Below, one piece after another: positions 1 to 13,700 of a stretch of DNA of 20,000 nucleotides. The number at the start of each line of letters is the position of its first letter. Within the stretch, counting starts at the first letter, position 1. The translations under genes and the position numbers were made by a program. The notes under the pieces are model-generated. The model ran no database searches and was not told where the DNA came from. It worked only from the letters and a program-made list of their open reading frames with translations. The stretch lies in the IMG/VR virus record IMGVR_UViG_3300025821_000010; one strand, 5' to 3'. The stretch comes from an uncultured virus (IMG/VR IMGVR_UViG_3300025821_000010). Taxonomy: Duplodnaviria > Heunggongvirae > Uroviricota > Caudoviricetes.

Positions 1-329
1 CTTCTAATGGCTCCTTTTATTCTTTTAGACAGGAAAGACTTTAATGTTTTTTCCTCGTCTTCTGAGTTTTCTATTGTTTCCCATATTATTTTGTCAACAG
101 CTTTGATCAGTCCCAAACTACCGTCCTGTATTAAATCTGTAATATCCATAACACCGGAAGCTTGTTGAGCTGTTGAAAACTTCCTTGCTATGTTTTCTAC
201 TAAAGGTAAAAACTTAATTATAAGCTCGTCTCTAGTGTACTCGTTAAATGGTTTTTCGCCGACACGTTCAATTGAAGACTTTACATCTTCTTTATATCGT
301 ACGTAGTTCTGAATGTTGTACTTTTTCAT
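1..329 (-). CDS. Phage-encoded sigma70-family RNA polymerase sigma factor (N-terminal part; runs off the left edge)
   Basis: Manual translation from ATG at 329: MKKYNIQNYVRYKEDVKSSIERVGEKPFNEYTRDELIIKFLPLVENIARKFSTAQQASGVMDITDLIQDGSLGLIKAVDKIIWE...LKSFLSKRIKGAIR. ELIIKFLPLVENIARKF, DLIQDGSLGLIKAVDK and SFLSKRIKGAIR match the sigma70 region 2 pattern. Not in the ORF track because it is truncated. Confidence 0.85.
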   Translation of the reverse strand, partial: MKKYNIQNYVRYKEDVKSSIERVGEKPFNEYTRDELIIKFLPLVENIARKFSTAQQASGVMDITDLIQDGSLGLIKAVDKIIWETIENSEDEEKTLKSFLSKRIKGAIR

Positions 330-945
330 ATCCGTTGTTTAATAGTTCCTTCTCTTTTTTGAGTTCATTGGTCATATTACGGTATATGGTTCTTGGTGTA
401 CAATTTAATTGTTCAGCTAAATTAGCTACTGTTATTTTATTCCCGCAGTCGTTTATGTATAGCATAACATCGTAGATGTCAGACTCGGTAATTCTTTTGC
501 TTCTACCTACGAGTTGTCCTACGATACTTAGTTTGTCTGACAATTCTAGTTTACAATTATAATTAAATATAACTTTACGGGTCTTATTAGATGGATCTTG
601 TTCTAGGTCACACATACTTATTTCGTATATGATTTTATTTAACAAGTCATCATTTATTGTAAATGTAACAAATCCATTTTTAATATTGCATATAAATTTA
701 GATAAATTTAAAAAATTATCAGGATCAAGTTTTGGGTTAAGATACCATAGAACTAATAAATGCCACTTTAAAGATTTGTAGGTGTTGATCTTAGCTTTAC
801 TTCTAAAAAGATCATAACACTCTCTGGTACCGTCTTCATAAAACCAACCCCAATCATATGTTGAAGTTGGCTTGTCTTTAACTGGCAACCTTCTGTAAAG
901 TATTCTGTTTCGATGTAAATAATCGAGACGACGTTCGTATGACAT
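292..945 (-). CDS. Putative DNA-binding protein with C-terminal helix-turn-helix (217 aa)
   Basis: ORF track. C-terminal KITVANLAEQLNCTPRTIYRNM is a typical HTH. Overlaps the sigma-factor start. Confidence 0.7.
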   Translation of the reverse strand: MSYERRLDYLHRNRILYRRLPVKDKPTSTYDWGWFYEDGTRECYDLFRSKAKINTYKSLKWHLLVLWYLNPKLDPDNFLNLSKFICNIKNGFVTFTINDDLLNKIIYEISMCDLEQDPSNKTRKVIFNYNCKLELSDKLSIVGQLVGRSKRITESDIYDVMLYINDCGNKITVANLAEQLNCTPRTIYRNMTNELKKEKELLNNGYEKVQHSELRTI

Positions 946-988
946 TAGCCTATTACCCCTTTATATTAACTACCTATTGTCACACTGT
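938..988. repeat. Inverted-arm element copy 1 (TATGACATTAG-25 nt core-CTATTGTCACACTGT); core reversed relative to copies 2 and 3
   Basis: Read directly from sequence. Arms are identical to those at 9878-9927. Overlaps the start codon of the HTH gene (945). Confidence 0.85.
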
Positions 989-1331
989 GACTGTTTATTA
1001 ATCTAATGGAAACATTATTCCATTTTCCATATTTTACTTTTTTGTTAACCAAAAAATCAATTTTTTTAGTCCAACGTTTATTCATGCGATCACGAATATA
1101 CCAAATGCCATTCATACGTCCAGCATTCTCTACGCAAATTGTTTTACCCATAGTAAAACCTATTTTTTCAAGATCTCTTGATACAGCTACTATTCTATGC
1201 TTTTTAGGGTTATCTAAATCAATAACAAAACCCGTTGCTGTTATGTTTGGTGTATCATCTGTTTGACCTGGCACCGCATTGTAAACAGTTGCTGTTACGC
1301 ATGCTACTATACTTACTATTAATGTTTTCAT
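966..1331 (-). CDS. 3D-domain (MltA/RlpA-like double-psi beta-barrel) cell-wall-associated protein
   Basis: TATVYNAVPGQTDDTPNITATG, IVAVSRDL and IRDRMNKRWTKKIDF follow the 3D-domain pattern. Hydrophobic N-terminus. Confidence 0.75.
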   Translation of the reverse strand: MKTLIVSIVACVTATVYNAVPGQTDDTPNITATGFVIDLDNPKKHRIVAVSRDLEKIGFTMGKTICVENAGRMNGIWYIRDRMNKRWTKKIDFLVNKKVKYGKWNNVSIRLINSHSVTIGS

Positions 1332-1609
1332 GATTTATTCTTTTCAATTAAACTAATAAGTTTTTCAATGTCTTCTTTACTGGTAAATTCAATATTATCG
1401 TAATCAAACATTTCTACACCCCAGCCATTTTTTTTAGCTTCTCCGTTATCACTAGATATTAAACATAATTCATTTGTAATATTATATGTGTAATAGTAAT
1501 AAGGTTTTAGATCTGAGTCTTTATGTTCTGGGTATAAATCAGTTACATATGATTTTTTAAACCCTAAATCTATTAAATCTTGTTCTTTCATATTGTTTTT
1601 TTTACTCAT
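1328..1609 (-). CDS. Hypothetical phage protein
   Basis: ORF track gives 1328..1612. First ATG is at 1609; 1591 is an alternative. Stop overlaps the next start (ATGA). Confidence 0.7.
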   Translation of the reverse strand: MSKKNNMKEQDLIDLGFKKSYVTDLYPEHKDSDLKPYYYYTYNITNELCLISSDNGEAKKNGWGVEMFDYDNIEFTSKEDIEKLISLIEKNKS

Positions 1610-1769
1610 CAAAAAATTCCTTTACTTGTTTTGTATTCCAAGATGCTGCTAAAGATATTTGCCTTAACAGGTCTACATACTCTGTAAAGTCTATATCTGA
1701 ATGGTCTACTTCTACTGAATACTTATATTCGTACTGTTCTATTGTTATTCTGTAAGGTTGTTTTTTCAT
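1602..1769 (-). CDS. Hypothetical protein, 55 aa (MKKQPYRITIEQYEYKYSVEVDHSDIDFTEYVDLLRQISLAASWNTKQVKEFFDE)
   Basis: Manual translation. Fills the gap and is ATGA-coupled to 1766..2032. Confidence 0.7.
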   Translation of the reverse strand: MKKQPYRITIEQYEYKYSVEVDHSDIDFTEYVDLLRQISLAASWNTKQVKEFFDE

Positions 1770-2032
1770 ATCTCTTTGGTGTTAAAGGTTTGGTCAAAAC
1801 ACTGTTCGTTATCGTAATAGTTTACCCAAAAATCTCTGTTTTGACCTATTGATTGAAACTCACACATAACTTCTTTTTCTTTCTCAAGCATTGATTCTGC
1901 TATTTCTAAATAAAATTGAGACATTCTAATAGCTATCAAGCCACCGTTAGAAGGGTGTGTATTATAGTGCAAAGTATCTTCTTTGAGTTTTTCTTTCATA
2001 AACTCAATCATTTCTTGCATTGGTGTTTTCAT
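1766..2032 (-). CDS. Hypothetical phage protein (88 aa)
   Basis: ORF track; translationally coupled on both sides. Confidence 0.7.
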   Translation of the reverse strand: MKTPMQEMIEFMKEKLKEDTLHYNTHPSNGGLIAIRMSQFYLEIAESMLEKEKEVMCEFQSIGQNRDFWVNYYDNEQCFDQTFNTKEI

Positions 2033-2172
2033 AAAAATTCTATTATAACATTTTTGTTATAGTCTTTTAATATTCTTTCAACTGCCGCATCTTGCACGTG
2101 ATCAGCAACAACACCATTAATTAAGTAATCGTGGGTATCGCTGCCGTCAATTATACGCATTGTGTATAGCAT
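2029..2172 (-). CDS. Hypothetical protein, 47 aa (MLYTMRIIDGSDTHDYLINGVVADHVQDAAVERILKDYNKNVIIEFL)
   Basis: Manual translation. Starts just after the upstream stop and overlaps the downstream start (ATGA). Confidence 0.6.
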   Translation of the reverse strand: MLYTMRIIDGSDTHDYLINGVVADHVQDAAVERILKDYNKNVIIEFL

Positions 2173-2174
2173 AA

Positions 2175-2465
2175 TTACTTTTTAAGATCATTAAGCTTTT
2201 TAACAACTTTGTTTATCTTGTTGTTTAATATAGCTGCTTTACTATAGTCTTCGTTTTGCTCATAGCGTAACAATAGCTCGTTAAGTCTTTTAAGTTCTAT
2301 TTCTAACAACTCTTGTTCAGATATAATATATTGACCACTAACTTCCGCGTCATCACCTAACGTTTCTTGCATGTTGTCAATAAACTGTTTATCAAACTCT
2401 TCTTGACGAGCATATATTTTGTCTACTATAATGTCAGCTAATTGGTTCATTTCTTGTTCAGTCAT
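2175..2465 (-). CDS. Hypothetical protein with C-terminal UVR-like coiled-coil motif
   Basis: ORF track. LNELLLRYEQNEDYSKAAILNNKI resembles the UvrB/C (UVR) motif. Confidence 0.65.
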   Translation of the reverse strand: MTEQEMNQLADIIVDKIYARQEEFDKQFIDNMQETLGDDAEVSGQYIISEQELLEIELKRLNELLLRYEQNEDYSKAAILNNKINKVVKKLNDLKK

Positions 2466-2688
2466 TTTGTTTAAGATCTTTTTTAATTAATGCGTATATA
2501 TATTTCCAAACTTTTGCGTCGTGTTCCTGATGTTGTAATACCATTTGTAACTGTTCTTTAGTTACACCAGCCCAACGCTTTTGTTTTATGTCATCAACAG
2601 TATTATTAATATCTATATCGGACATAATAACTTTAGCATTAGCTTTATCTAACGCGCGTTGTTTGGTATCAAAATCAGTTTCTATCAT
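2458..2688 (-). CDS. Hypothetical phage protein (76 aa)
   Basis: ORF track; overlaps both neighbours. Confidence 0.7.
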   Translation of the reverse strand: MIETDFDTKQRALDKANAKVIMSDIDINNTVDDIKQKRWAGVTKEQLQMVLQHQEHDAKVWKYIYALIKKDLKQND

Positions 2689-2915
2689 TATTTAATTTTT
2701 TTGTAGGAAAATAATCTAATTACATTCCTATTTAAGTATGCACCTTTTGATACTGCTGATCTTAAACCTTCAAACGTTCCTGAATCAACATCTGAATATA
2801 CATATTTAGATCCTGAGTTGAATTTAACTAATAATGTTTTTTTCATTGGTGTGTATGTAACTGAGTCTACCATACTTGAATACACATCGATCTTTTCTTT
2901 TAAAATTCTTTCCAT
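2688..2915 (-). CDS. KTSC domain protein
   Basis: SSMVDSVTY...LLVKFNSGSKYVYSDV...LRSAVSKGAYLNRNV is the KTSC signature. First gene after promoter motif P1. Confidence 0.85.
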   Translation of the reverse strand: MERILKEKIDVYSSMVDSVTYTPMKKTLLVKFNSGSKYVYSDVDSGTFEGLRSAVSKGAYLNRNVIRLFSYKKIK

Positions 2916-2937
2916 TGTTAATTGTTTTAATTGTTAT

Positions 2938-2975
2938 ATAATTATTATCTAGCTTGCCGCGTATTGTTTTTGTAA
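2938..2975 (-). promoter_or_regulatory. Conserved promoter-like motif P1
   Basis: Minus strand TTACAAAAAC AATACG CGGCAAGCTA GATAATAATTAT, about 20 nt upstream of the KTSC ATG. Confidence 0.75.
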
Positions 2976-3422
2976 TTCATATCTTTTATTTTCTTCAGTG
3001 TTTTTAGATATGTGTTTTTCACTTATGTCTGCTTTCTTTTGCTCGAGTACAGCTATAGTGTTTTTTAATTCTAATATCCTATCGTTTATCTCGTTAATAG
3101 TTTTAACCTCTTGAACCTCAGATATATATATATTCTCTACTTTCCTGTACAACTCTTCTATATCTCTTTCGTATGGCAATTCATTTTCAAAGTTTTTAAT
3201 ACTATGTAAAACAGTTGCATGATCTTGACCCATACTTTTAGCTATTGCAGAACAACCAGCTGTAGAGTAATCCATTGATAGTTTATAGTAAACCCAACGC
3301 AACATTTTGTATTCACGTTTGCGTGTATTTACTTTGTATGAATACTCACCAGCTTCGTCTAATATTTTATAGTAAAAGTAGTTTAGTATTTTTTTATTTG
3401 ATGGTGTAATTCTTGGTGTCAT
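2949..3422 (-). CDS. DnaA domain IV-like (Bac_DnaA_C-type HTH) DNA-binding protein with C-terminal coiled coil
   Basis: TRKREYKMLRWVYYKL...SAIAKSMGQDHATVLHSIK matches the DnaA C-terminal signature (R.R...R...YL...IG..FG.RDHTTV.HA). No AAA+ domain, so it is not a true DnaA. Confidence 0.75.
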   Translation of the reverse strand: MTPRITPSNKKILNYFYYKILDEAGEYSYKVNTRKREYKMLRWVYYKLSMDYSTAGCSAIAKSMGQDHATVLHSIKNFENELPYERDIEELYRKVENIYISEVQEVKTINEINDRILELKNTIAVLEQKKADISEKHISKNTEENKRYELQKQYAAS

Positions 3423-3432
3423 ATGTTTATAT

Positions 3433-3693
3433 TTAATCTAGTAATACCATGTAAGCTTCTGCGTTTGAATGCCTAAACCAATCAAGGCCTTTTCTAAACT
3501 CTGAGTCTATCATTCTATTGGATTGACCTCGTTCTATTAACCATTGAGCACCCATTATAAAATCATACATAGATAACTCATTGTTATTTAACTCTGCTTC
3601 TGCTCCTGTAAAAGGATTTTTAACCGTATCGCCGCTAGCGTATACTTTACCTTCGAACCATTTTGGTAAACCCATTTTTTCTTTTGTTTTCAT
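3433..3693 (-). CDS. Hypothetical phage protein (86 aa)
   Basis: ORF track; within the tightly packed operon. Confidence 0.75.
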   Translation of the reverse strand: MKTKEKMGLPKWFEGKVYASGDTVKNPFTGAEAELNNNELSMYDFIMGAQWLIERGQSNRMIDSEFRKGLDWFRHSNAEAYMVLLD

Positions 3694-3884
3694 AATTTCT
3701 TTTCATTTAATAGTTTAAAATGTTTATATACTTCAGGTATATGCTTTTTGTAGTAAGGTTGTGAACTTTTAATCTCGTCTTTTAATTTTTCAGGATCATC
3801 AATGCGTGGCCAGTTTTGAAAATCTACCTCTACTTCATTAATAAAATCTTGTACTGTCCAGCCTTCCCATACGTGTCTATTCAT
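3690..3884 (-). CDS. Hypothetical phage protein (64 aa)
   Basis: ORF track; ATGA coupling. Confidence 0.7.
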   Translation of the reverse strand: MNRHVWEGWTVQDFINEVEVDFQNWPRIDDPEKLKDEIKSSQPYYKKHIPEVYKHFKLLNEKKL

Positions 3885-3886
3885 AA

Positions 3887-4234
3887 TTAAAATTTGTGTG
3901 ACATTTTATTATTTACATACCATTCATTCCATAAGTATTCCCAACGATCGCTATCCTCTCCAAGATCACATTCGTCTAATATATATTCATCAACATAGAT
4001 GAAAGACCCTAAGTTTATAGCAGATTCAATTTCTGGCTGCAAGTAATGAGCTTGAGTGTATATATCTCTATCAGGTATAACACTTTTCCAGTCAGCTTGG
4101 TCTAAAGCAACATATATATCATGACCATCTGCTGTCATTATTGATTCAAAAGATACATCATATCCAACACCACCGTGTTCAGTGTCAAGTGTTGATCCTG
4201 ACTTTTCAAGTACTAAGTTTTTGTAATGTGACAT
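3887..4234 (-). CDS. Acidic hypothetical protein (115 aa)
   Basis: ORF track; D/E-rich. Confidence 0.7.
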   Translation of the reverse strand: MSHYKNLVLEKSGSTLDTEHGGVGYDVSFESIMTADGHDIYVALDQADWKSVIPDRDIYTQAHYLQPEIESAINLGSFIYVDEYILDECDLGEDSDRWEYLWNEWYVNNKMSHKF

Positions 4235-4237
4235 AAT

Positions 4238-4336
4238 TTAAAATATTAAGTTAAAAATTGATTTAAATACTACAAGCACAAGCAATATTACATTGAATAT
4301 TATCCATGCCATTATTATTTTTTCTATAGGCCTCAT
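4238..4336 (-). CDS. Small predicted membrane protein, 32 aa (MRPIEKIIMAWIIFNVILLVLVVFKSIFNLIF)
   Basis: Manual translation. Fits exactly between neighbours and has one hydrophobic helix. Confidence 0.55.
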   Translation of the reverse strand: MRPIEKIIMAWIIFNVILLVLVVFKSIFNLIF

Positions 4337-4337
4337 A

Positions 4338-4943
4338 TTAATGATATATTAGTCCGACTTTGTTAGTTTTGTTAAACCATCTGGTTGCATATAGATCATT
4401 CTCTGACGCATTAGCATAACCAGCAGCAACTAATTCATCTGCAGTTTTAAATATCTCTGTATGACGATCTATTGACTTGTCTATAAGATCTACTTGTTTG
4501 CCTGAGTTACTGAATATAAAGTCATAATTGCTAGGTACATCAGCTTTTTTAACCATATCGATCATGTTGGTATAACTATAGAAATTTACATGTGGATTTT
4601 GCTTTGCAATTTGAAACCACTTAGCTAAATACTCACGTGAATAATAGTCGCCGCTATCGTGTACTCGCACAAACTTAGGCTTTTTGCTCTGTATCTCGGC
4701 GTGTATAGCACTTACAAAGCTATCTGTCTTGCTAAGCTCGTAACGTTTTTCGAACGCTGGCTTTACATTACCCCATATATACGCGCCTTTACGTGCATAA
4801 CAGAACTTAATACAACCATCTGCCATAGGGCAAATGACTCTACCTGTTATACTTTTGTAAGCTGGTAAGCCAAAGTTGACAACTTTAAAGCCCATTAGCT
4901 TACTAGTCTTTTTTAATTTACCGTTTTGTGTTAACAACTGCAT
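4338..4943 (-). CDS. Phage gp88-like protein (Cys-cluster, radical-SAM-like)
   Basis: FGLPA...CPMADGCIKFCYARKG and VRVHDSGDYYS...YSYT are characteristic of the GP88 family. Confidence 0.75.
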   Translation of the reverse strand: MQLLTQNGKLKKTSKLMGFKVVNFGLPAYKSITGRVICPMADGCIKFCYARKGAYIWGNVKPAFEKRYELSKTDSFVSAIHAEIQSKKPKFVRVHDSGDYYSREYLAKWFQIAKQNPHVNFYSYTNMIDMVKKADVPSNYDFIFSNSGKQVDLIDKSIDRHTEIFKTADELVAAGYANASENDLYATRWFNKTNKVGLIYH

Positions 4944-5263
4944 AATACTTCTTGTAATTTATCTGTTATAGCAAATATAAATTCCGCTGGCTCTGTTTTA
5001 CCGCCAATACTCCACGTCGTTAGATCGTTTTTAGTATAGTTTTCGCTGTATGTTTTCCAATCATATAATGTATATATGTTGTCTTTAAATTTAAACACCC
5101 ATTCGAATTGAACTTTGCCATCGCCTGAATCATCTGGTGAATAAGTTGGGCTACCAAACGCAAGTATTAAATCATTGTAGTAATAGCCGTGTAATGAACC
5201 TATTTTATGAGTGCCATGTGTTGCTGATTTCCAGTCAGCTTCGTGTTTAGTTAGTTTTTTCAT
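4931..5263 (-). CDS. Conserved hypothetical phage protein (110 aa)
   Basis: ORF track; FGSP...DGKVQFEW...YTLYDWK...WSIGG pattern. Confidence 0.75.
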   Translation of the reverse strand: MKKLTKHEADWKSATHGTHKIGSLHGYYYNDLILAFGSPTYSPDDSGDGKVQFEWVFKFKDNIYTLYDWKTYSENYTKNDLTTWSIGGKTEPAEFIFAITDKLQEVLCSC

Positions 5264-5264
5264 G

Positions 5265-5453
5265 TTACCAAGTTTTAGTTAAATATGTGTTATAGTATTG
5301 CTTTAATGTTTTATTAAATAAATCCATAGCTGCATTATCTGTTTCTTTGATTAAATCTTTATCGTAAAGCATTTCTAATAATTGCTCGCTGACAAAGTCG
5401 CATGTTAGCTCATAAAGATCGCTAGATAATTCTTGATACATTTGCTTGTTCAT
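5265..5453 (-). CDS. Hypothetical protein (62 aa)
   Basis: ORF track; first gene after P2. Confidence 0.7.
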   Translation of the reverse strand: MNKQMYQELSSDLYELTCDFVSEQLLEMLYDKDLIKETDNAAMDLFNKTLKQYYNTYLTKTW

Positions 5454-5477
5454 GGTTATAATTTTTATTTGTTATAC

Positions 5478-5515
5478 ATATATATTATCGTAAGTGCTAC
5501 GTATTATTTTTGCAA
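5478..5515 (-). promoter_or_regulatory. Conserved promoter-like motif P2
   Basis: TTGCAAAAAT AATACG TAGCACTTAC GATAATATATAT on the minus strand. Confidence 0.8.
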
Positions 5516-5727
5516 TACTTTTCTTCGTAAGCTAATAAGTATTCAATTTGTTCTTTAATATCTTTGAACTTTCTTTTTACCTGATAGATCAATGGACCTT
5601 GGTGGTATGGGTTATCTTGATTGGTTTTAAAGCGTACGTACTTGGTTTTAGGGTAGATACCTGCCCATTTACCGTTTGATAGTGTTACGTATATATTACC
5701 TTTTTTAGTTACTTTAGTGATTTCCAT
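5497..5727 (-). CDS. Basic hypothetical protein (76 aa)
   Basis: ORF track. Confidence 0.7.
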   Translation of the reverse strand: MEITKVTKKGNIYVTLSNGKWAGIYPKTKYVRFKTNQDNPYHQGPLIYQVKRKFKDIKEQIEYLLAYEEKYCKNNT

Positions 5728-5729
5728 AA

Positions 5730-5885
5730 TTATTTTATCTTGTTTTTGCGTGTGTATAGCACTTGTAATAGATCTGAAGCTTTATACATATCTAACTTTT
5801 CGTTAGTATCTCGCTTATGATCTACTAATAAATGCAAGCCATCTATTAATGAGTCTAGTTGTTCTGAGTTAAAAAATAAGTTCAT
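5730..5885 (-). CDS. Hypothetical protein, 51 aa (MNLFFNSEQLDSLIDGLHLLVDHK...)
   Basis: C-terminal part of ORF-track 5730..5963. ATG 5885 is preferred because the upstream part is occupied by the Cys-rich ORF. Confidence 0.6.
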   Translation of the reverse strand: MNLFFNSEQLDSLIDGLHLLVDHKRDTNEKLDMYKASDLLQVLYTRKNKIK

Positions 5886-5979
5886 CTTCGTTTTCGTTAT
5901 AAAATTCAGCGTGTTCTTTGCAGTCGGAGCAAATATCCGTTTCAAACCATGGCGATGCGCCACAACAGTTACTTTCCAT
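5869..5979 (-). CDS. Small Cys-rich zinc-ribbon-like protein, 36 aa (MESNCCGASPWFETDICSDCKEHAEFYNENEDELIF)
   Basis: Manual translation. CCG...CxxCxxH; starts 2 nt after the upstream stop. Confidence 0.7.
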   Translation of the reverse strand: MESNCCGASPWFETDICSDCKEHAEFYNENEDELIF

Positions 5980-5981
5980 AA

Positions 5982-6287
5982 TTAATCTTTTAAATATCCA
6001 CGTAATTCTTTATCTTCTATTTGTAATAAGAAATCCCATAATAGATTGTGGAAATCTTCCATGTCATCCCACTCGCAATTATCGTGGACAAAATTCCATT
6101 TATCAGCTAATGGTACGCCTACGTGATCTTTAACAGTGTCTGGATCAAAGTAAAACCTATATTTTAGTTTTGCTATTATATCTTTAATAACAGGATTAGT
6201 ATCATTTGGAAACATAGTAACATGTTTTATTAGATACTTGGTTAATACTGTGTGCTCTTCGTTGTTTAAATAAATTTCTTTAGACAT
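5982..6287 (-). CDS. Hypothetical protein (101 aa)
   Basis: ORF track; first gene after P3; leader AAATAATATAACT-ATG. Confidence 0.75.
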   Translation of the reverse strand: MSKEIYLNNEEHTVLTKYLIKHVTMFPNDTNPVIKDIIAKLKYRFYFDPDTVKDHVGVPLADKWNFVHDNCEWDDMEDFHNLLWDFLLQIEDKELRGYLKD

Positions 6288-6310
6288 AGTTATATTATTT
6301 TAATTATTAT

Positions 6311-6348
6311 ATATATATTATCTGAGGTGCTACGTATTATTATTGTAA
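6311..6348 (-). promoter_or_regulatory. Conserved promoter-like motif P3
   Basis: TTACAATAAT AATACG TAGCACCTCA GATAATATATAT. Confidence 0.8.
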
Positions 6349-6465
6349 ATTTGCTAATATAAACTCTGTTAGTAAATATGCGCAGCCAAGTATTCCGCTG
6401 AGCGCAGCTGTATATAGTACGCATAGCCACGTGTATAGCATAGCGTTAGTTATTTTATTCTTCAT
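6340..6465 (-). CDS. Small predicted membrane protein, 41 aa (MKNKITNAMLYTWLCVLYTAALSGILGCAYLLTEFILANLQ)
   Basis: Manual translation; hydrophobic core. Confidence 0.5.
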   Translation of the reverse strand: MKNKITNAMLYTWLCVLYTAALSGILGCAYLLTEFILANLQ

Positions 6466-6619
6466 CTTGTATTTCTTTTATTATTTCTGTTAATTCTTCT
6501 AAGTTATTTAAATGGTAGTGTGAGTGGTATTCATCACCTACTTTTATAGTAGTATCTATTAAATCATTATACTCTGATCCAGTGAACCAGATTTCTATGT
6601 TTATTTTTTTAGCTAACAT
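6455..6619 (-). CDS. Acidic hypothetical protein, 54 aa (MLAKKINIEIWFTGSEYNDLIDTTIKVGDEYHSHYHLNNLEELTEIIKEIQDEE)
   Basis: Manual translation; overlaps both neighbours. Confidence 0.6.
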   Translation of the reverse strand: MLAKKINIEIWFTGSEYNDLIDTTIKVGDEYHSHYHLNNLEELTEIIKEIQDEE

Positions 6620-6882
6620 GACGCCCAACCTATAAAGTGATATTTATCTTGTGTTTCAAAGTATACACACTCTCGTTTACGTAGTTCGTCTAACGCTGCA
6701 TCATAGTGGTCGTCGCTTTCGGGCTCTTTTATTTCGCCTAATAAACTGCATGTAGCTATAGTGCCTGAGTAAGGATCGTGGCCATGCTCATATAGTGCAT
6801 CTTCTACTAGTTCTCTAAACGCTTGCTTTGCGCTTTCGTAATTCTTTTTTGGTACTGATTGGTGAAAGGATGTTGCTCCCAT
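6613..6882 (-). CDS. Conserved hypothetical phage protein (89 aa)
   Basis: ORF track; MGA.SF...A.YEHGHDPYSGTIAT...FIGWASC pattern. Confidence 0.75.
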   Translation of the reverse strand: MGATSFHQSVPKKNYESAKQAFRELVEDALYEHGHDPYSGTIATCSLLGEIKEPESDDHYDAALDELRKRECVYFETQDKYHFIGWASC

Positions 6883-6884
6883 AG

Positions 6885-7082
6885 TTAAGATATATTAAAT
6901 GTTAGTGGAAATTTACTAGCTATTAACTTTGCTAATGGCAAGTCTTTATTAGCACCATCGCATATTAGCTTACATAAGTTTTCTTGTTTCTCGAATAATT
7001 CTTCTTGCCATATCATATCGCTTAAGAAAAAATCTTCTCCTAAAATCTCGCAGAATTTAGTTACAAATTGAGCGTGTGTCAT
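6885..7082 (-). CDS. Hypothetical protein (65 aa)
   Basis: ORF track; leader AAATAATATAACT-ATG. Confidence 0.7.
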   Translation of the reverse strand: MTHAQFVTKFCEILGEDFFLSDMIWQEELFEKQENLCKLICDGANKDLPLAKLIASKFPLTFNIS

Positions 7083-7101
7083 AGTTATATTATTTTAAGT
7101 G

Positions 7102-7263
7102 TTAGAAGTAATCTTGTCTAATAAAGTTATTAATTATATCGTGTACTTTAATTTGATTAGTTAAAGGTAGTGAGTTAAACTCTTCGTCGTGTTTCCAATT
7201 CTTTAAGTCGCTTTTGTCTTGCCACCTATTATAGATCTTGTGTGCGATTTCTTGATTAGTCAT
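7102..7263 (-). CDS. Hypothetical protein, 53 aa (MTNQEIAHKIYNRWQDKSDLKNWKHDEEFNSLPLTNQIKVHDIINNFIRQDYF)
   Basis: Manual translation; same AAATAATATAACT-ATG leader. Confidence 0.7.
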   Translation of the reverse strand: MTNQEIAHKIYNRWQDKSDLKNWKHDEEFNSLPLTNQIKVHDIINNFIRQDYF

Positions 7264-7270
7264 AGTTATA

Positions 7271-7447
7271 TTATTTATAGTTATTATTTAGTGATCCGTT
7301 ATAAAATTCTTCTTCAAGTATATTAACTATTGCTTCCATAGCTAATGATGCTTCGTATGGCGTAGCATATGGTGTATTCTCATACGCTATAGCTACTTTA
7401 CCTATAGATTCTATTATTTGCTCGTTACTCATAGGATATTGCCTCAT
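7271..7447 (-). CDS. Hypothetical protein, 58 aa (MRQYPMSNEQIIESIGKVAIAYENTPY...)
   Basis: Manual translation; ATGA coupling to the upstream ORF. Confidence 0.6.
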   Translation of the reverse strand: MRQYPMSNEQIIESIGKVAIAYENTPYATPYEASLAMEAIVNILEEEFYNGSLNNNYK

Positions 7448-7605
7448 AGCTTTTTTATTTTATTAGATAAAGTGTATGCGTTTAGTGTTTGCTCTATAGT
7501 ATTTATAGTTTCTAACATGCTTGCATTATTATCTTCTGCTTTATATAATATATAGCGTATATCACTGATTAATTGCTCAGTTTCGGTGAGATTTTTAGTG
7601 GACAT
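7444..7605 (-). CDS. Hypothetical protein, 53 aa (MSTKNLTETEQLISDIRYILYKAEDNNASML...)
   Basis: Manual translation; TAACT-ATG leader. Confidence 0.6.
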   Translation of the reverse strand: MSTKNLTETEQLISDIRYILYKAEDNNASMLETINTIEQTLNAYTLSNKIKKL

Positions 7606-7607
7606 AG

Positions 7608-7811
7608 TTATTTAATATATGTTAGTGATAATAAACTAGCGGATATAAAGGTTAAGCCATTGTAGTTAAACCACTCGCGCACTGCAGAATCTTTTGCTAC
7701 TTCGGCGAAATTTTTAGGCAAACTAGATACGGTGAAGCCTATATAACGCTTACGATTTGAGCGTATTAGAGGTAATTTAGAAATTTTGGTAGTTTTAATA
7801 GTTAAAGACAT
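7608..7811 (-). CDS. Basic hypothetical protein (67 aa)
   Basis: ORF track; first gene after P4. Confidence 0.7.
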   Translation of the reverse strand: MSLTIKTTKISKLPLIRSNRKRYIGFTVSSLPKNFAEVAKDSAVREWFNYNGLTFISASLLSLTYIK

Positions 7812-7843
7812 AGTTATATATTTTAAGTTATTAATTAATGTAT

Positions 7844-7881
7844 ATTTATATTATCAACACTACAACGTATTATTATTGTAA
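7844..7881 (-). promoter_or_regulatory. Conserved promoter-like motif P4
   Basis: TTACAATAAT AATACG TTGTAGTGTT GATAATATAAAT. Confidence 0.8.
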
Positions 7882-7972
7882 CGAAGGTGGTTTATTATTT
7901 ATTAGTTGAAAAGAGTAGAGGGATATTATACTCTGTCTCTCCATACAAGAATATAATTCTCCCCGCAGAAAA

Positions 7973-8018
7973 GTGTGACATTAGCTAGTTAAATAGTAGG
8001 GTAACAGGCTATTGTCAC
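7973..8018. repeat. Inverted-arm element copy 2 (GTGTGACATTAG-CTAGTTAAATAGTAGGGTAACAGG-CTATTGTCAC)
   Basis: Read directly; intergenic. Bracketed by direct repeats AGAAAAGTGT at 7967-7976 and 8024-8033. Confidence 0.85.
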
Positions 8019-8039
8019 CCCCTAGAAAAGTGTATAGCA

Positions 8040-8216
8040 CTACAGATCACTGTATTTTATTAGTGCGAATATATCTTCTTCGTTTACTTCTATTTCACTA
8101 TCTTCTGCGTGCATAGTCATAGTGAAGTTTAGTATAAATTCAGCGAGATCATTCTTATCCCACTCTAATAATTGCTCGTAAGAGAATAGTTTGCTTGATA
8201 GTACTAGTTTTTCCAT
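8040..8216 (-). CDS. Acidic hypothetical protein, 58 aa (MEKLVLSSKLFSYEQLLEWDKNDLAEFILNFTMTMHAEDSEIEVNEEDIFALIKYSDL)
   Basis: Manual translation. Directly downstream of P5; stop followed immediately by TGCTATACAC. Confidence 0.7.
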   Translation of the reverse strand: MEKLVLSSKLFSYEQLLEWDKNDLAEFILNFTMTMHAEDSEIEVNEEDIFALIKYSDL

Positions 8217-8231
8217 GTTTAATTATTTTAT

Positions 8232-8269
8232 AAATATATTATCTTATAGTGTACGTATTATTTTTGTTG
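8232..8269 (-). promoter_or_regulatory. Conserved promoter-like motif P5
   Basis: CAACAAAAAT AATACG TACACTATAA GATAATATATTT. Confidence 0.8.
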
Positions 8270-8286
8270 AGCGCAAGTGTATAGCA

Positions 8287-8517
8287 TTAAGAGATAAGTT
8301 CTCTTAACACTACTGGAACACTTGTTGAAGAAGTATAGCTTTTATATTTAATAAAGCAAGGCATTACTTCGAGTTTCGCTTGCATAATTTTATACGCTTC
8401 GTCGTGATTGTAAGTTACTTCTTTTCCACTTTTGAATTTGACTTTTATTATAGTGTTAGAGCCAATAAGTGATTTTCTGATTAAAAAGCGTTTTGAGTTT
8501 AAAGTTTGAGTTTGCAT
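8287..8517 (-). CDS. Small basic protein, paralog A (76 aa)
   Basis: ORF track. 52/65 aa identical to 9185..9427 by manual alignment; preceded by P6. Confidence 0.85.
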   Translation of the reverse strand: MQTQTLNSKRFLIRKSLIGSNTIIKVKFKSGKEVTYNHDEAYKIMQAKLEVMPCFIKYKSYTSSTSVPVVLRELIS

Positions 8518-8558
8518 AGTGATTTAATTTAAGTTATTAATTATTATTTTTTAGTTAC

Positions 8559-8596
8559 ATATATATTATCTAGTAGCGAACGTATTATTTTTGTTG
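8559..8596 (-). promoter_or_regulatory. Conserved promoter-like motif P6
   Basis: CAACAAAAAT AATACG TTCGCTACTA GATAATATATAT. Confidence 0.8.
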
Positions 8597-8684
8597 AGCG
8601 CAGCGAAGTGCTATACACGCCTGGCGGCGTTAACTATAGTGTGTGACGGAGTCTACTCTTCCGACGCTATTTCAAAGTCAGGCC
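8597..8684 (-). ncRNA. Candidate small structured RNA downstream of P7
   Basis: GC-rich, ORF-less interval between P7 and P6. Hairpins ACGCC-TGGC-GGCGT (outer CTATA/TATAG) and CGGA...TCCG. Inference only. Confidence 0.3.
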
Positions 8685-8722
8685 TTATATATTATCTTAA
8701 CAGCAGCGTAAAACTTTTGTAA
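8685..8722 (-). promoter_or_regulatory. Conserved promoter-like motif P7
   Basis: TTACAAAAGT TTTACG CTGCTGTTAA GATAATATATAA. Confidence 0.7.
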
Positions 8723-8750
8723 TCAAACGCTCCTGTTCGCGCTGTGAGGT
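8723..8750. repeat. GTGAGGT boundary element 1 (type A)
   Basis: TCAAACGCTCCTGTTCGCGCTGTGAGGT; 23/28 identical to 9510-9537 and at the same distance from its promoter motif. Confidence 0.8.
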
Positions 8751-8751
8751 C

Positions 8752-8931
8752 CTATTTAAAAGACCTCAACCATTCGATTACTCCATCATAATGCTCTTTC
8801 ATTGCAGGAGATTCTTCACATGTATAATAAGGTTTAGAGAACATTGCTTTGGTTTCTCTACCTAAAGCATTACTATAGGTTATAGAGTAATAGTTTGATT
8901 TTGGGTTGTTGGTGATCTTAAATGGTATCAT
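8752..8931 (-). CDS. Hypothetical protein, 59 aa (MIPFKITNNPKSNYYSITYSNALGRETKAMFSKPYYTCEESPAMKEHYDGVIEWLRSFK)
   Basis: Manual translation; TAG stop lies 1 nt from boundary element 1. Confidence 0.65.
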   Translation of the reverse strand: MIPFKITNNPKSNYYSITYSNALGRETKAMFSKPYYTCEESPAMKEHYDGVIEWLRSFK

Positions 8932-8935
8932 ATGA

Positions 8936-9085
8936 TTAAGGTATTAGGTTTATATTAGAGTTCATTTCATCCCACATTTCTTGTAACCATGGTAATTCAT
9001 CATAGTCATCTAGTGTGTATTCTTTGTTGTTGATAGTGATAATGTCAATGTCATGATCTTCACTAATTAGTAATTTGATTTCCAT
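8936..9085 (-). CDS. Highly acidic protein, 49 aa (MEIKLLISEDHDIDIITINNKEYTLDDYDELPWLQEMWDEMNSNINLIP)
   Basis: Manual translation; directly downstream of P8; 13 D/E versus 2 K and no R. Confidence 0.65.
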   Translation of the reverse strand: MEIKLLISEDHDIDIITINNKEYTLDDYDELPWLQEMWDEMNSNINLIP

Positions 9086-9104
9086 AAGAGTTATTATTTA
9101 ATTT

Positions 9105-9142
9105 ATATATATTATCTGAAGAGTTCAGTATTTTTTTTGTAA
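9105..9142 (-). promoter_or_regulatory. Conserved promoter-like motif P8 (AATACT variant, lacks the CG)
   Basis: TTACAAAAAA AATACT GAACTCTTCA GATAATATATAT. Confidence 0.75.
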
Positions 9143-9155
9143 TTGCACTTCATTT

Positions 9156-9178
9156 GCTCAATAATAGTCGTGAGGTGT
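9156..9178. repeat. GTGAGGT boundary element 2 (type B)
   Basis: GCTCAATAATAGTCGTGAGGTGT; 21/23 identical to 9620-9642. Confidence 0.8.
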
Positions 9179-9184
9179 TAAGTA

Positions 9185-9427
9185 CTAAGAGACTGATTTG
9201 TCCCTTAGCACTGTTGGTATTGAAGTACTTGATGTGTATGATTTGTACTTGATAAAGCATGGCATTGTATCAAGCTTGTCCTTCATTATTTCATATGCTG
9301 CATCATGATTGTATTCATATTGCTTACCTGATTTGAATGTGACTTTAATGATTGTGTTTGTACCAATTAGAGATTTTCTGATTAAGAATCTTTTGCTTTC
9401 CATTGTTTTTTGATTTGAATTTGACAT
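9185..9427 (-). CDS. Small basic protein, paralog B (80 aa)
   Basis: ORF track; paralog of 8287..8517; preceded by P9; contains no CG dinucleotide. Confidence 0.85.
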   Translation of the reverse strand: MSNSNQKTMESKRFLIRKSLIGTNTIIKVTFKSGKQYEYNHDAAYEIMKDKLDTMPCFIKYKSYTSSTSIPTVLRDKSVS

Positions 9428-9471
9428 AATTGTTTGATTTAAATTTATATTAATTATTAATTATTTATTAT

Positions 9472-9509
9472 ATATATATTATCTATATACAAGCGTATTT
9501 TTTTTGTAA
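9472..9509 (-). promoter_or_regulatory. Conserved promoter-like motif P9
   Basis: TTACAAAAAA AATACG CTTGTATATA GATAATATATAT. Confidence 0.8.
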
Positions 9510-9537
9510 GCAAATGCTTCGGCTCGCGCTGTGAGGT
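9510..9537. repeat. GTGAGGT boundary element 3 (type A)
   Basis: GCAAATGCTTCGGCTCGCGCTGTGAGGT; last 14 nt identical to 8737-8750. Confidence 0.8.
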
Positions 9538-9560
9538 GGGCTATATTGCTCGCTGCTTAC

Positions 9561-9598
9561 ATATATATTATCTACTCGCAAGCGTATTTATTTTGTAA
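9561..9598 (-). promoter_or_regulatory. Conserved promoter-like motif P10
   Basis: TTACAAAATA AATACG CTTGCGAGTA GATAATATATAT; no ORF between it and P9. Confidence 0.8.
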
Positions 9599-9610
9599 CG
9601 CACATACTGG

Positions 9611-9642
9611 AATCAAAACGCTCAGTAATAGACGTGAGGTGT
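9611..9642. repeat. GTGAGGT boundary element 4 (type B right part, type A-like left part)
   Basis: AATCAAAACGCTCAGTAATAGACGTGAGGTGT. Left part matches AATCAAACGCTC at 8721-8732; right part matches 9156-9178. Confidence 0.8.
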
Positions 9643-9877
9643 CTTGTCAATTAGTATATCTCCAGGAAAAAAGCTAAAAGCTGGGGGTATTTCAACGTAA
9701 AAGGCAAAACATAAAACGCAAATCTTATAAAACACGGGGACCCCGGTCATTTTGAAACGCAAAAGGTTTTTAGTTGTTGTTGTAGAAAAGAAGGGGTAAC
9801 ACCCTACTCCTAAATTTCTAACATAATTTTTACCATACCCCTATATTTGTTACAATTTTTTTTATAAAATAAAAAAC

Positions 9878-9927
9878 TATGACATTAGGCTGTTATATTA
9901 AGGGGTAATAGGCTATTGTCACACTGT
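9878..9927. repeat. Inverted-arm element copy 3 (TATGACATTAG-GCTGTTATATTAAGGGGTAATAGG-CTATTGTCACACTGT)
   Basis: Read directly; abuts the plus-strand promoter-like motif P11. Confidence 0.85.
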
Positions 9928-9957
9928 AAAATACGATGCTTTCGTGTGAATATATAA
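9920..9957 (+). promoter_or_regulatory. Divergent plus-strand copy of the promoter motif (P11) in front of the structural operon
   Basis: AATACG (9930-9935) ATGCTTTCGT GTGAATATATAA. Same N10 spacing but GTGAAT replaces GATAAT; about 25 nt before ATG 9982. Confidence 0.6.
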
Positions 9958-9981
9958 AGTATACAAAAAAGACACAAAAAA

Positions 9982-10077
9982 ATGGCAGCAAACTTAGGAA
10001 ACGAGGCAGTTACAGTGATGTATCTAGGAAGCGAGACAGTTACAGCTGTGTATTTAGGTACAGAGCAGGTAATATAA
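9982..10077 (+). CDS. 31-aa repeat micro-protein (MAANLGNEAVTVMYLGSETVTAVYLGTEQVI)
   Basis: Manual translation. A-rich leader; three 10-aa/30-nt repeats that keep the amino-acid pattern despite codon changes. Confidence 0.7.
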   Translation: MAANLGNEAVTVMYLGSETVTAVYLGTEQVI

Positions 10078-10093
10078 TTTAAAATTTATTCTC

Positions 10094-10447
10094 ATGAACA
10101 TAGTAGGTAACGAAAACGACGACATACAAATACAATTAGATGAAAATGGGCAATGGACTCACCATGCTAGTGAAAAAACGGTGGGTAAACAGGTGCATTG
10201 TCATTATACTATTGTGTCTACTGATCATCCAGAGGAGGATGCTGGTTTAACATGGGATTTTGAATTGGATTGTAGCCATAATAACCAGACAAAGAAAGGT
10301 AATCAGATCCCTACAGGTGTAAAGTGGTCATGTGAGGTAAATACTAATTCCTCAAGTGACACGCAATTTGATTTTACGGTTACATCAAATAAAGGGCAAG
10401 ACCTTGCTGGTTATATTGTAAGATTACTAGCAGTAGAAAACTCATAA
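10094..10447 (+). CDS. Hypothetical beta-rich protein (117 aa)
   Basis: ORF track. Confidence 0.7.
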   Translation: MNIVGNENDDIQIQLDENGQWTHHASEKTVGKQVHCHYTIVSTDHPEEDAGLTWDFELDCSHNNQTKKGNQIPTGVKWSCEVNTNSSSDTQFDFTVTSNKGQDLAGYIVRLLAVENS

Positions 10448-10452
10448 TAAGT

Positions 10453-10713
10453 ATGGCGAAGCAAAAATTATCACCAGAAGCGCTAAAAGCAAAAAGAAGA
10501 CGCGATTTAGCAGCGGCAAATTCACCGTTTAGGCGAGAATTACGTGCAGATAGCCAAAGAAAGAGAAGAGCAGCGGAAAATGCTGGTAGAAACCTTGATG
10601 GATTAGATTATGATCATAATACAGGAAAATTTGTACCGCTTGGTTACAACAGAGGAGGTACTCAACAAGGTGGTACTGATGGTACAAAAGCAGAAAATTC
10701 AAGAAACGCGTAA
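10453..10713 (+). CDS. Small basic protein with degenerate HNH-like motif
   Basis: Arg-rich N-terminus followed by GLDYDH...YNRG, reminiscent of short phage HNH proteins. Confidence 0.5.
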   Translation: MAKQKLSPEALKAKRRRDLAAANSPFRRELRADSQRKRRAAENAGRNLDGLDYDHNTGKFVPLGYNRGGTQQGGTDGTKAENSRNA

Positions 10714-10727
10714 AGAAATAATATAAA

Positions 10728-13700
10728 ATGGCAATAATATACAGCTACGAACAGGAAGCTAATCCACAGTTTTCAGATTTACTACTAGGTACAGATGTAA
10801 GTGCGCCTGGGAAGCCTACTAAATCATTCTCTATACAGAGCATCGTTGATTTGGTTGAAACAGGTGTGCCTGGTGGTGGTACTGTAACAAGTGTTGGTAC
10901 TAATAGTAGTACCTTTGTTACTTTATCAGGTGGACCAATCACTACTTCCGGTATCATATCAGCATCGTTATCTGCCACAGGCGTGCCTAGTGCCACTACA
11001 TATCTTCGTGGTGATAATACTTGGGCTACAATACCTTCTTCTTTAAATACAACATACACGATTACAAGTGCGCAAAACGGTACAGCTGCGAATATAAGGC
11101 TTACTGGTAGTGATACTACGCAGACGTTGGTTACACTAGCTGCTGGCGCAAACATTGCTTTAACAGACAATGGTTCTAATCGTATTACAATTGGGGTTAC
11201 AGGACTACCATCTGGATCAGTGACAAGTGTTACTGCAGACGGTGGGTTATATATAGTTAGTGGATCTGCAACAGTAAATCCAGTACTAGCAGTTGATTTA
11301 ACTGGTTTAAACAATTATATTAAAGTTAGTGAAAATCAAACTACAGCTATAAGTGATGACTTCATAGCTTTTAATCAAAATTCCTCTGAAAATGTAAAGA
11401 CTACAACTTTAGGGGCAATAACACCTAATTCTTTATCTCTTGTAAAAGATTATATTGATGCAGGTGATGTTGGTGACGTTAGAAACGACACTGATACATT
11501 TACTACAACAGCAGTTGTTGAAAACGTAGTAAGTTTGACATCAGCTGAATATTCTGCGCTAACACCAAATGCAAACACTTTATACCTTATAGTAGGTGCT
11601 GCGACATCATACACTAATACTTTAGCGTTTACAAACAACATTGTAGGTACTGAGTATACAATTGGTGGTGATCAAGCTGGTGCAACAAGATCGGGTATTG
11701 AGGGCGCATCTTATGCTTTTAATACTACGATAACACCAAATTCTGGTTATTACTTCTCATCAGGGCCTACAGTAACAAACGCTTCAGGGGTATTCGGTAC
11801 TGCTGATGAAACAGTATATACAATATTAGAAGGTACTGTTGAGCAAATAGTAGAGCCACCTATAACAGCTACACTTGCATTGACGCTATCACCTAGTTTA
11901 GGTACAAACGGCGTTGAATATACATTAGGTGGTGATTTAGCAGGTGCAACACAATCTGGTCCTTCTCCATTAACATACGCATTTAATACAACTATATCAG
12001 CTAATAGTGGTTATGAGTTTACATCAGGACCTACAATTACAAATGCTACTGGAACAATAAACGGTAGTCAATCAGTTGTTACTAATATAACTGGTACTAT
12101 AGAGGCGATTGCAATACCTCCAGTAACAGTAACGCCATCATTAATAAATAATTTCACAGGTGAATCTTCACAAGTTAGTTTATCAGTTACACCTGGTTCT
12201 TTCTCTGGAGACTCCCCTGTTACTTATACATTTAACCCGGTTGCTACAGCAAACTCTGGTTATGCAATAGAAAACTTAACTTACACTGGTGATATATCTG
12301 GAAGTGCTACAAGCAGTAAAACAGCTGTTATGTATGCTAATGGTAATGTAATACAAACAAGCACTAACGCTGTTGTTGAATTAGACCTGGTTGTTAATAT
12401 TACTGGTGGTGGATATGTTACTAGTGGTGATTTAGACGGTGCTCAACAAACAGGACCTATACCATTTACTTATGCATTCGATACAGATGTTTCGCCGTTG
12501 CCTGGATATGAATTTACTAGTTTGACTATAAACAACGCTTCTGGTACAACTAATCAATCAGGTTTACAAGTAGTAACAACTACAATAACAGGTACTATTC
12601 AAGAAGCACCTGAAACAGTAAGAGCTACACTGCAAGTTAACCCAAGTATAACAGGTGAGCAGGTTTATAGTATAACAGGTGACAACACTGGTGCTTTCCA
12701 AGAAGGTTTACCGCCGTTTGATTATTCTTTCTCAACAGGTGTTTCTATACCTAGTGGATATGAATGGACAACCGGCCCTAATGTATCGCCTAATCCTAAT
12801 TCTGGTACAATATCTGCAGATACAACGGTTACTACTAATATAACTGGAAATATAGCTGCTGTTGCAGATTCTTATTATACTTTATTTAAGTGTAGCACTC
12901 AATCTGGTGGATTTACATCAAGTCAAACTACAACTCAAATATCATTAAATACTAATGATCAAATATATAACTTAGCAAATGCGTCAGATACATATATTGT
13001 AACTGGAACTTCAACTTCGCAAGGCACTAGTATTAGTGTATCTTCTAGTCAAGGAACTGGATGTCCTCCAACATTATACTACTATATAATTGAAAACTGT
13101 GCTAATTCATCACAACTACAATATGGTTACAGTACTCAACCTAATTTAGGCGCTGGAGATACGTTTAACTACTTTAGTAACTGTTACAAATATTATGACG
13201 TTGATCCTACCGAGGTTGGAACAATTGATTTAGATGCTTTGTCAACATGTCAATGTGGCCCTGAACAAGGGTATGTTAATTTAACTTTTTCTAATAACGT
13301 AACTGGTGCAGCAAACACAACAACTGCTCTTGGCGGGTTTACAACGTTACAAGGTAATGTTGGTGACCCTTACACGTTTACAAACTCAATAGTTGCTAAT
13401 ACAGGTTATCAATTTACATCTGGACCAACATGGAACCCTTCTGCTGTAATAACAGGTACTTTCGTTTCTGGAACTACTAATATAACACAAACAGTAACTG
13501 GTAACGTAACAGCAATTCCAAATGAAGTAACTGTTACTTTAGCATTTAGCAATAATGTAACTAACAATCAATTTACAACAACTAGTTTAACACCCGGAGC
13601 TACAATAACAGGTAATCCTGGTGATTCATATCAGTTTGTTCACACTATAACTACAGATCCTGGTTATGAATTTACGTCAGGGCCAACTTGGGTGGATAAT

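Follow-up and report, generated by a model that had tools for sequence, protein, structure and literature searches.

Why does a stretch of 717 nt near the early/late divergence point of a phage genome contain a single CG? The DNA concerned, hereafter the window, is 20,000 nt of an uncultured virus (IMGVR_UViG_3300025821_000010) and has its small early genes on the minus strand, as far as 9427, with the structural genes on the opposite, plus strand; the CG-poor stretch lies at 8777–9493 and its only CG is at 9169. An earlier note on this sequence offered two explanations: units imported from a CG-depleted donor phage, or DNA that must be expressed before protection against a CG-directed defence. 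We conclude that the stretch is real, that it is neither due to chance nor the signature of a donor, and that CG is kept out of the transcription unit of one small acidic gene by purifying selection.

The CG-poor stretch in the window

CG occurs at 8775, 9169 and 9494 and nowhere between, that is once in the stretch against 13.75 expected from base composition. The earlier note had described it so and had roughly estimated that ten or more CGs would be expected, and it was also right about the CG-rich flanks (14 vs 8.6 and 10 vs 6.1 expected). The dinucleotide GC is at its normal level (14 vs 13.8), and both CA (38 vs 23.7) and TG (65 vs 51.1) are in excess. Palindromes in general are not avoided, as had been remarked: GATC is found 2 times in the stretch, CATG 5, AGCT 1 and GTAC 4.

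All the genes of the stretch lie on the minus strand. The first early gene, paralog B (9185–9427), encodes a basic protein of 80 aa (pI 9.7) and has no CG; the promoter-like repeat before it (9476–9509) carries, in its TACG box, the bounding CG at 9494. A hypervariable spacer starting with ACCTCAC (9143–9178) holds the single CG at 9169. Then come a second promoter-like repeat (9109–9142), whose role as promoter is suggested by its position and repetition, and the 49-aa acidic accessory ORF (8936–9085; pI 4.05, net charge -11), which has no CG, belongs to a large unnamed family and is the focus of the avoidance. Directly downstream, a 59-aa ORF (8752–8931) has one CG, at 8775, and does not occur outside this phage and its close relatives. 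The repeat before the acidic ORF reads TACT for TACG and is, as claimed, the sole such copy; the motif gives ten copies in all, nine of them with TACG, and not the eleven counted earlier. Paralog A (8287–8517, minus strand), sister of paralog B and so an internal control, contains 6 CG, which agrees with the contrast first drawn between the two. The paralog family overall is not CG-poor (CG O/E 1.07). The longest GC-free gap of the window, 278 nt (8867–9145), overlaps the acidic ORF and its promoter-like repeat.

The depletion holds under codon resampling, the three ORFs having one CG against 10.7 expected, and none of 3000 block shuffles of window 1–9700 reached the 719-nt span (maximum 577). 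In the two records 99.9% identical to the window this span is the longest with one CG, the next longest being 634. Under a homogeneous Poisson model of a 65-kb genome, however, P is 0.034 for a span whose boundaries were picked post hoc. The objection that similar CG-poor windows might be common elsewhere applies in part to the single genome: an 89%-identical relative has an 828-nt one-CG span at another place, and 717-nt windows with 0–3 CG are found in late or replication regions of most relatives. One genome is thus only suggestive, and the case rests on the family data.

The phage and its relatives

IMG/VR holds two records 99.9% identical to the window, from which the genome-scale figures for this phage are taken, and three that are about 90% identical. 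The genome of 60–68 kb encodes a P22-like portal, GroEL/GroES (Cpn60/Cpn10), ribonucleotide reductase, a sigma-like protein and a capsid-like protein with 42–52% identity to proteins of Elemovirus, Cellulophaga and Maribacter phages. The core of the Pervagoviridae comprises portal, chaperonin cpn10 and structural proteins, as given in the accessible text of PMC8776804; portal, Cpn10, Cpn60 and a capsid-like match are all present here. By gene content we class the phage as a Pervagoviridae-like marine flavobacterial phage, and since it is Pervagoviridae-like its host is probably a flavobacterium, by analogy with the phages treated in that text.

The named flavobacterial podophages of this kind (Elemovirus, Callevirus, Maribacter phage Panino) share with it the capsid-like protein, the P22-like portal, GroEL/GroES and the size of 60–68 kb. 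They differ in that the acidic gene and the paralog were absent both from the named phage collection and from two records of such phages that were scanned; neither the region nor the paralog nor the acidic protein had a blastn or tblastn match among named phages. A 2,085-aa protein of the phage showed no virion RNA polymerase motif and no relative of solved structure. The records of the relatives are linear fragments or assembly-circular contigs, and the read-run data are contigs only.

CG avoidance in the acidic gene family

When the early ORFs of 80 related loci were clustered, one family stood out with 1 CG against 17 expected, and the 49-aa ORF of the window is a divergent member of it (HMM E 8.7e-20; bridged by intermediate proteins). 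The family amounts to 1,016 clusters at 90% identity. No CG was found in the gene at 97 of 102 homologue loci, near-copies included (10 + 8 viral loci, the best 80 of 351 metagenome matches and 4 further); only 11% of 141-nt windows further downstream are CG-free. After dereplication, 40 genes contain 4 CG against 77±6 in within-gene synonymous shuffles, and 39 of them, one partial gene being left out, 4 against 151 expected from background codon use. These 39 genes have 0 CG vs 4.0 in arginine codons, 1 vs 10.7 in NCG codons and 3 vs 136.5 at codon junctions. As all three codon frames are low, the constraint bears on nucleotides and not on a tRNA.

Could the lack of CG be simply inherited? 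Two-fold codons of the family end in C in 1 of 331 cases before G and in 97 of 254 before A, against 0.29–0.40 before G in other early and late genes; in single alignment columns C is used before A, and only T before G. Synonymous divergence at identical residues reaches 34% of codons. Parsimony on 81 unique genes places 58 C/T changes before A (7 columns) and 1 before G (10 columns). Because of this divergence, of the context-bound use of C and of the 58 changes against 1, the lack of CG is not due to shared ancestry. The avoidance is linked to the gene, ongoing, and exerted at the level of nucleotides.

The family is an extreme CG outlier among 78 early families (O/E 0.06), among 141 genome-wide families (0.05) and among 1162 family–dinucleotide pairs. 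TG is enriched in it (563 vs 400 expected), GA is normal (551 vs 561) and GC is half-depleted (19 vs 42). Avoidance of one particular CG-containing palindrome was rejected: genomes with and without the gene were alike, and all CG trinucleotides are low. For the window's own subfamily, two scans for further DNA brought up nothing beyond known loci and two spurious matches. Three fused forms of the family were met on single short contigs and are probably chimeras; one of them, P0121, joins an N-terminal fragment of RNA polymerase alpha to the acidic protein on one 852-nt contig, probably also a chimera.

Extent of the purge

The purge covers the acidic gene and the DNA transcribed ahead of it. 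In leaders where paralog and acidic gene form one unit we counted 5 CG against 36.4 expected (11 independent clusters; a further cluster, L279, with 8 CG, has its own promoter and was left out). Almost all of these CGs fall in the T-loop of a tRNA-like element, the loop reading TTCAA, without CG, in 7 of the 16 copies that precede the acidic gene vs 3 of 84 in loci without it. This T-arm-like element lies between paralog and acidic gene in L015, L202, L225 and others, and is absent from the window. Of nine paralog copies 440–540 nt upstream of the stop of the acidic gene, seven have no CG, as against 3 of 43 copies where the acidic gene is missing; a paralog just upstream is also the arrangement of the window. 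Inside the gene the CG O/E does not exceed 0.07; it is 0.3–0.4 over the first 50 nt past the stop, and above 1 by 100–150 nt. The promoter-like box keeps its CG in 16 of 50 copies before the acidic gene vs 61–72% elsewhere (P=0.0003), or in about 11 of 27 after clustering, one cluster making up 20 of the 50 copies. Further up, 40–120 nt before the promoter, the DNA is rich in CG. CG-free runs of up to 1.4 kb occur in some phages.

Several observations count against the explanation that we favour. The downstream control for the leaders is also low (15 vs 26.1, n=5), upstream ORFs of the same unit, called automatically, have a CG O/E of only 0.59, and the two flanking ORFs contain just 3 CG even in relatives without the acidic gene. 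Moreover, long CG-free runs exist without detectable homologue, of 1,085 nt in G006 and 598 nt in G024. The leading regions of G006 and G024, like L043, L060 and L062, where long CG-free runs also come without such a homologue, contain another small acidic family with a CG O/E of 0.19, a candidate for a second CG-linked gene.

Avoidance of GC in a second family

GC is the word avoided in a second early family, of 29 dereplicated members, which is not in the leading region of this phage: 4 are found vs 38.5 expected, and none at all in 25 of the 29. Its use of G before C is 0/48 vs 657/2580, its CG is normal (1.21), and even alanine is lost, with 2 of 1467 residues vs 3.6%; this loss points to selection. 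Long GC-free runs occur at 83–100% of loci with this family vs 16% of loci with neither family, the maximum being 1,941 nt; runs of 1.3–1.9 kb are found in phages whose genome-wide GC O/E is 1.0–1.2 (leading regions of L037, L048, L192, L202, L237, G044 and G049). Partial depletion of GC is also seen in two other families (12 vs 43.9 and 7 vs 21.5). In a set of 103 loci, taken without dereplication and over-representing the acidic gene, runs with at least 10 expected occurrences were found for CG at 16 and for GC at 35, and for the other 14 dinucleotides at 0–3; late-region controls gave CG runs at 6 of 94 and GC runs at none of 94.

Alternative explanations

That the units came from a CG-depleted donor was the first option of the earlier note, and the middle unit is indeed an indel: 8933–9092 is absent from three relatives of about 90% identity, and contigs from two of four runs join 8932 to 9179, skipping it. 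Cassette exchange is thus real for this polymorphic insertion; the CG-depleted donor finds no support, and we hold it very unlikely. The check proposed at the time, of CG in the genomes of the homologues, shows no depletion and no gap, the whole-genome CG O/E being 0.61–0.96 in 10 records with the gene vs 0.61–0.82 in 23 without, so that none of the 33 is CG-poor and no CG-depleted donor lineage appears. Paralog B groups with the CG-containing paralog A and not with outside sequences (sisters with support 100/92, on 64 columns only), the CG-free paralog copies are scattered on the tree (17 changes, at least 12 of them forced, 78 of 82 copies being placed), and the avoidance is context-specific and ongoing in all homologues. 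Relatives without the acidic gene have TACG in the matching promoter-like copy (seen in two of them) and 2 CG in paralog B; this low CG could reflect a relaxed selection after loss of the gene, or a partial purge. A chance gap in a genome of CG O/E about 0.65 has a negligible probability in our view: it could invoke the post hoc boundaries, the genome-wide P and the similar spans of a relative, but not the contrast between the gene, CG-free nearly everywhere among the loci sampled (best 80 of 351 metagenome matches among them), and the downstream windows. Chance is refuted for the gene, and part of the length of the stretch may nevertheless be due to it. A local mutational process, i.e. a context-specific cytosine deaminase, or methylation followed by deamination, eroding CG to TG and CA in early-exposed DNA without any selection on the gene, would account for the excess of TG and CA. 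It appears quite improbable: a C5 methyltransferase was encoded in 0 of 48 phage records, CG stays near zero at 34% synonymous divergence while C and T exchange freely before A, the boundary tracks the gene and not the position, and the GC-avoiding family has lost even alanine.

Position might matter instead of the gene, if the DNA injected first is purged of host-nuclease sites, as in the first-step-transfer region of T5 or the left end of T7, the acidic gene being merely resident there. Sites in the first-transferred region decide the restriction of T5-like phages, according to the portion of PMC10644984 at hand, and in some relatives the CG-free 1.4-kb or GC-free 1.3–1.9-kb runs do start a short way ahead of the first promoter and extend over several units; some CG-free runs also occur without the acidic gene. 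Yet many loci have CG-rich hairpins or CG-rich paralog copies at no more than 50–200 nt from the CG-free gene, leading genes of loci without it are at a CG O/E of about 1 or more, and the paralog family, usually first, is not depleted, which makes this alternative rather unlikely. The resemblance with T5 and BF23 is that motif avoidance is confined to the early leading region (PMC10644984, same portion); here, by contrast, a dinucleotide is avoided in every context, in many loci only inside a single transcription unit, bordered at either end by CG-rich DNA. Such DNA directly flanks the unit in the window and in many relatives, and a whole leading segment free of the word is seen in a minority. 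Alternatively, CG could be removed for tuning expression, if a gene that has to be made very fast must be free of RNA structure or of pausing by RNA polymerase. The consensus pause includes a pyrimidine followed by G, and the mRNA of the acidic gene folds weakly (z +1.15). The RNA polymerase of Bacteroides follows the E. coli-type consensus pause, as stated in the text available of PMC11213015. TG, likewise a pyrimidine then G, is however enriched in the family, other leading genes are unpurged, and tuning gives no account of a sister family avoiding GC but not CG; we regard it as improbable.

A possible inhibitor of a CG-recognising defence

The other option of the earlier note, that this DNA has to be expressed before it is protected from a CG-directed defence, agrees best with the data, and in what follows we infer how it could work. 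A host defence would recognise CG in the incoming nucleic acid of the phage and block its expression, and the acidic protein would most likely inhibit that defence. Since that defence would still be active when the inhibitor has to be made, neither the sequence encoding the inhibitor nor the DNA transcribed before it could carry CG, hence a unit free of the target word; the remaining genome would keep its CG, being used after the defence is blocked. We lean, by a little, towards this reading, in which the acidic protein inhibits a CG-recognising host defence and its own unit must be expressed while unprotected. The parallel family avoiding GC counts in its favour.

The role of inhibitor is suggested by a small, acidic, patchy and early profile, like that of inhibitors of the DNA-mimic type, Ocr among them; the ORF of Ocr is transcribed before any other as the phage enters (PMC12707154, from the part accessible). 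The mean net charge of the family is about -9.3, the gene is present in 9 of 31 phages, and in 10 of 10 records it is no further than about 1 kb from where the early cluster starts, being early by position. Ocr of T7, ArdA of Tn916 and Arn of T4 are likewise small, strongly acidic and among the first genes; no sequence or fold match to them was found, and the acidic gene differs in that it avoids a two-base word. Its product (48–49 aa) is modelled as three strands and one helix (pLDDT 94.0). Among 48,161 chains the best fold match was at Z 3.3 (rmsd 2.7, 46 aligned), and nothing exceeded this value for either the acidic protein or the basic paralog (pLDDT 89.8), which is not evidence of a new fold. 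The acidic protein has no family in PHROGs, Pfam, NCBIfam, PDB sequences or Atlas, and nothing at E≤0.001 in the viral library; the same searches gave no known fold or family for the paralog. The lack of a function, fold or family match in these databases counts against an inhibitor, as does the fact that neither the host nor a CG-specific defence was identified.

What would read the CG? An enzyme directed at cytosine in double-stranded DNA seems to us modestly more likely than one directed at mRNA, since GC, the other C/G palindrome, is the word missing from the second family and since some of the promoter boxes have been purged. The CG retained in promoters and the CG-rich DNA upstream of them are nevertheless awkward for an enzyme that cuts DNA. 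CG is tolerated past the stop, in many promoter boxes and in a loop with structure, as would suit an mRNA-directed effector like CmdT: CmdT of CmdTAC, an mRNA ADP-ribosyltransferase, is dinucleotide-specific, blocks expression and spares structured RNA, and the tolerated CGs here are mostly in the T-loop. It differs by its target, GA, which is normal in the acidic gene (CmdT after PMC11618068, as far as its accessible text goes), and no CG-specific version was found in the literature searched. DarT1 is reported without sequence specificity in the part seen of PMC12945103, and the parts searched of a 2026 review contain no CG-specific system (PMC13434031). A reader of DNA has other models, since the two words avoided, CG and GC, are also those of dinucleotide methyltransferases. 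M.SssI and M.CviPI are cytosine methyltransferases of this type, and Mrr reportedly restricts CG-modified DNA. M.MpeI is a CG cytosine methyltransferase (PMC11282364, in the portion available). Unlike the local depletion seen here, in phages devoid of a C5 methyltransferase, their effects are genome-wide. None of the 141 families offered a co-occurring phage gene as candidate for a CG-directed enzyme.

Restriction-site avoidance is known for sites of 4–8 bases and for whole leading regions. That a dinucleotide has been purged in every frame from one phage gene family, and another from a second family, points to host systems with a two-base specificity, of which no description was found in the literature searched; nor did that literature (few subscription papers, main texts only) yield a report of gene-specific CG or GC avoidance in phages. 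There is a fair chance that motif avoidance in the early region, tied to specific unnamed genes, marks an undescribed host defence. Families lacking a word that their neighbours use would then offer a cheap and general screen for anti-defence genes. As a more tentative proposal, on which we would not wager, marine Flavobacteriia may hold undescribed anti-phage enzymes reading two-base cytosine contexts, of the CG and GC types, and their phages matching tiny inhibitors whose genes are purged of the word of the target. If this were true, a missing dinucleotide would predict both an inhibitor gene and the specificity of the defence from sequence alone.

Other elements around the locus

The basic paralog family opens the early region of nearly all relatives, in 1–4 copies. 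Each promoter-like repeat is preceded by ACCTCAC and a hypervariable spacer of 20–30 nt (8744–8750, 9170–9176, 9531–9537 and 9634–9640), and these spacers look shuffled among the relatives of about 90% identity. Directly after a promoter-like repeat, a conserved element of about 40 nt without ORF (8646–8690; also in L002, L004, L277 and L279) might be a small RNA; no Rfam match was obtained in window 7000–11000. The GTGTATAGCA-type motif occurs at 8271–8290, at 8606–8620 and in many relatives, often in tandem with GAAA-loop hairpins; its clusters, rich in CG and GC, lie ahead of early promoters even within purged regions and could be binding sites or decoys. A repeated element of about 60 nt with inverted-repeat ends (937–966, 7969–8027 and 9873–9931) is conserved near the early/late boundary in many relatives. 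Finally, other gene units, at 6906–7079, 8022–8210 and 10078–10452, are present or absent among close relatives and in populations.
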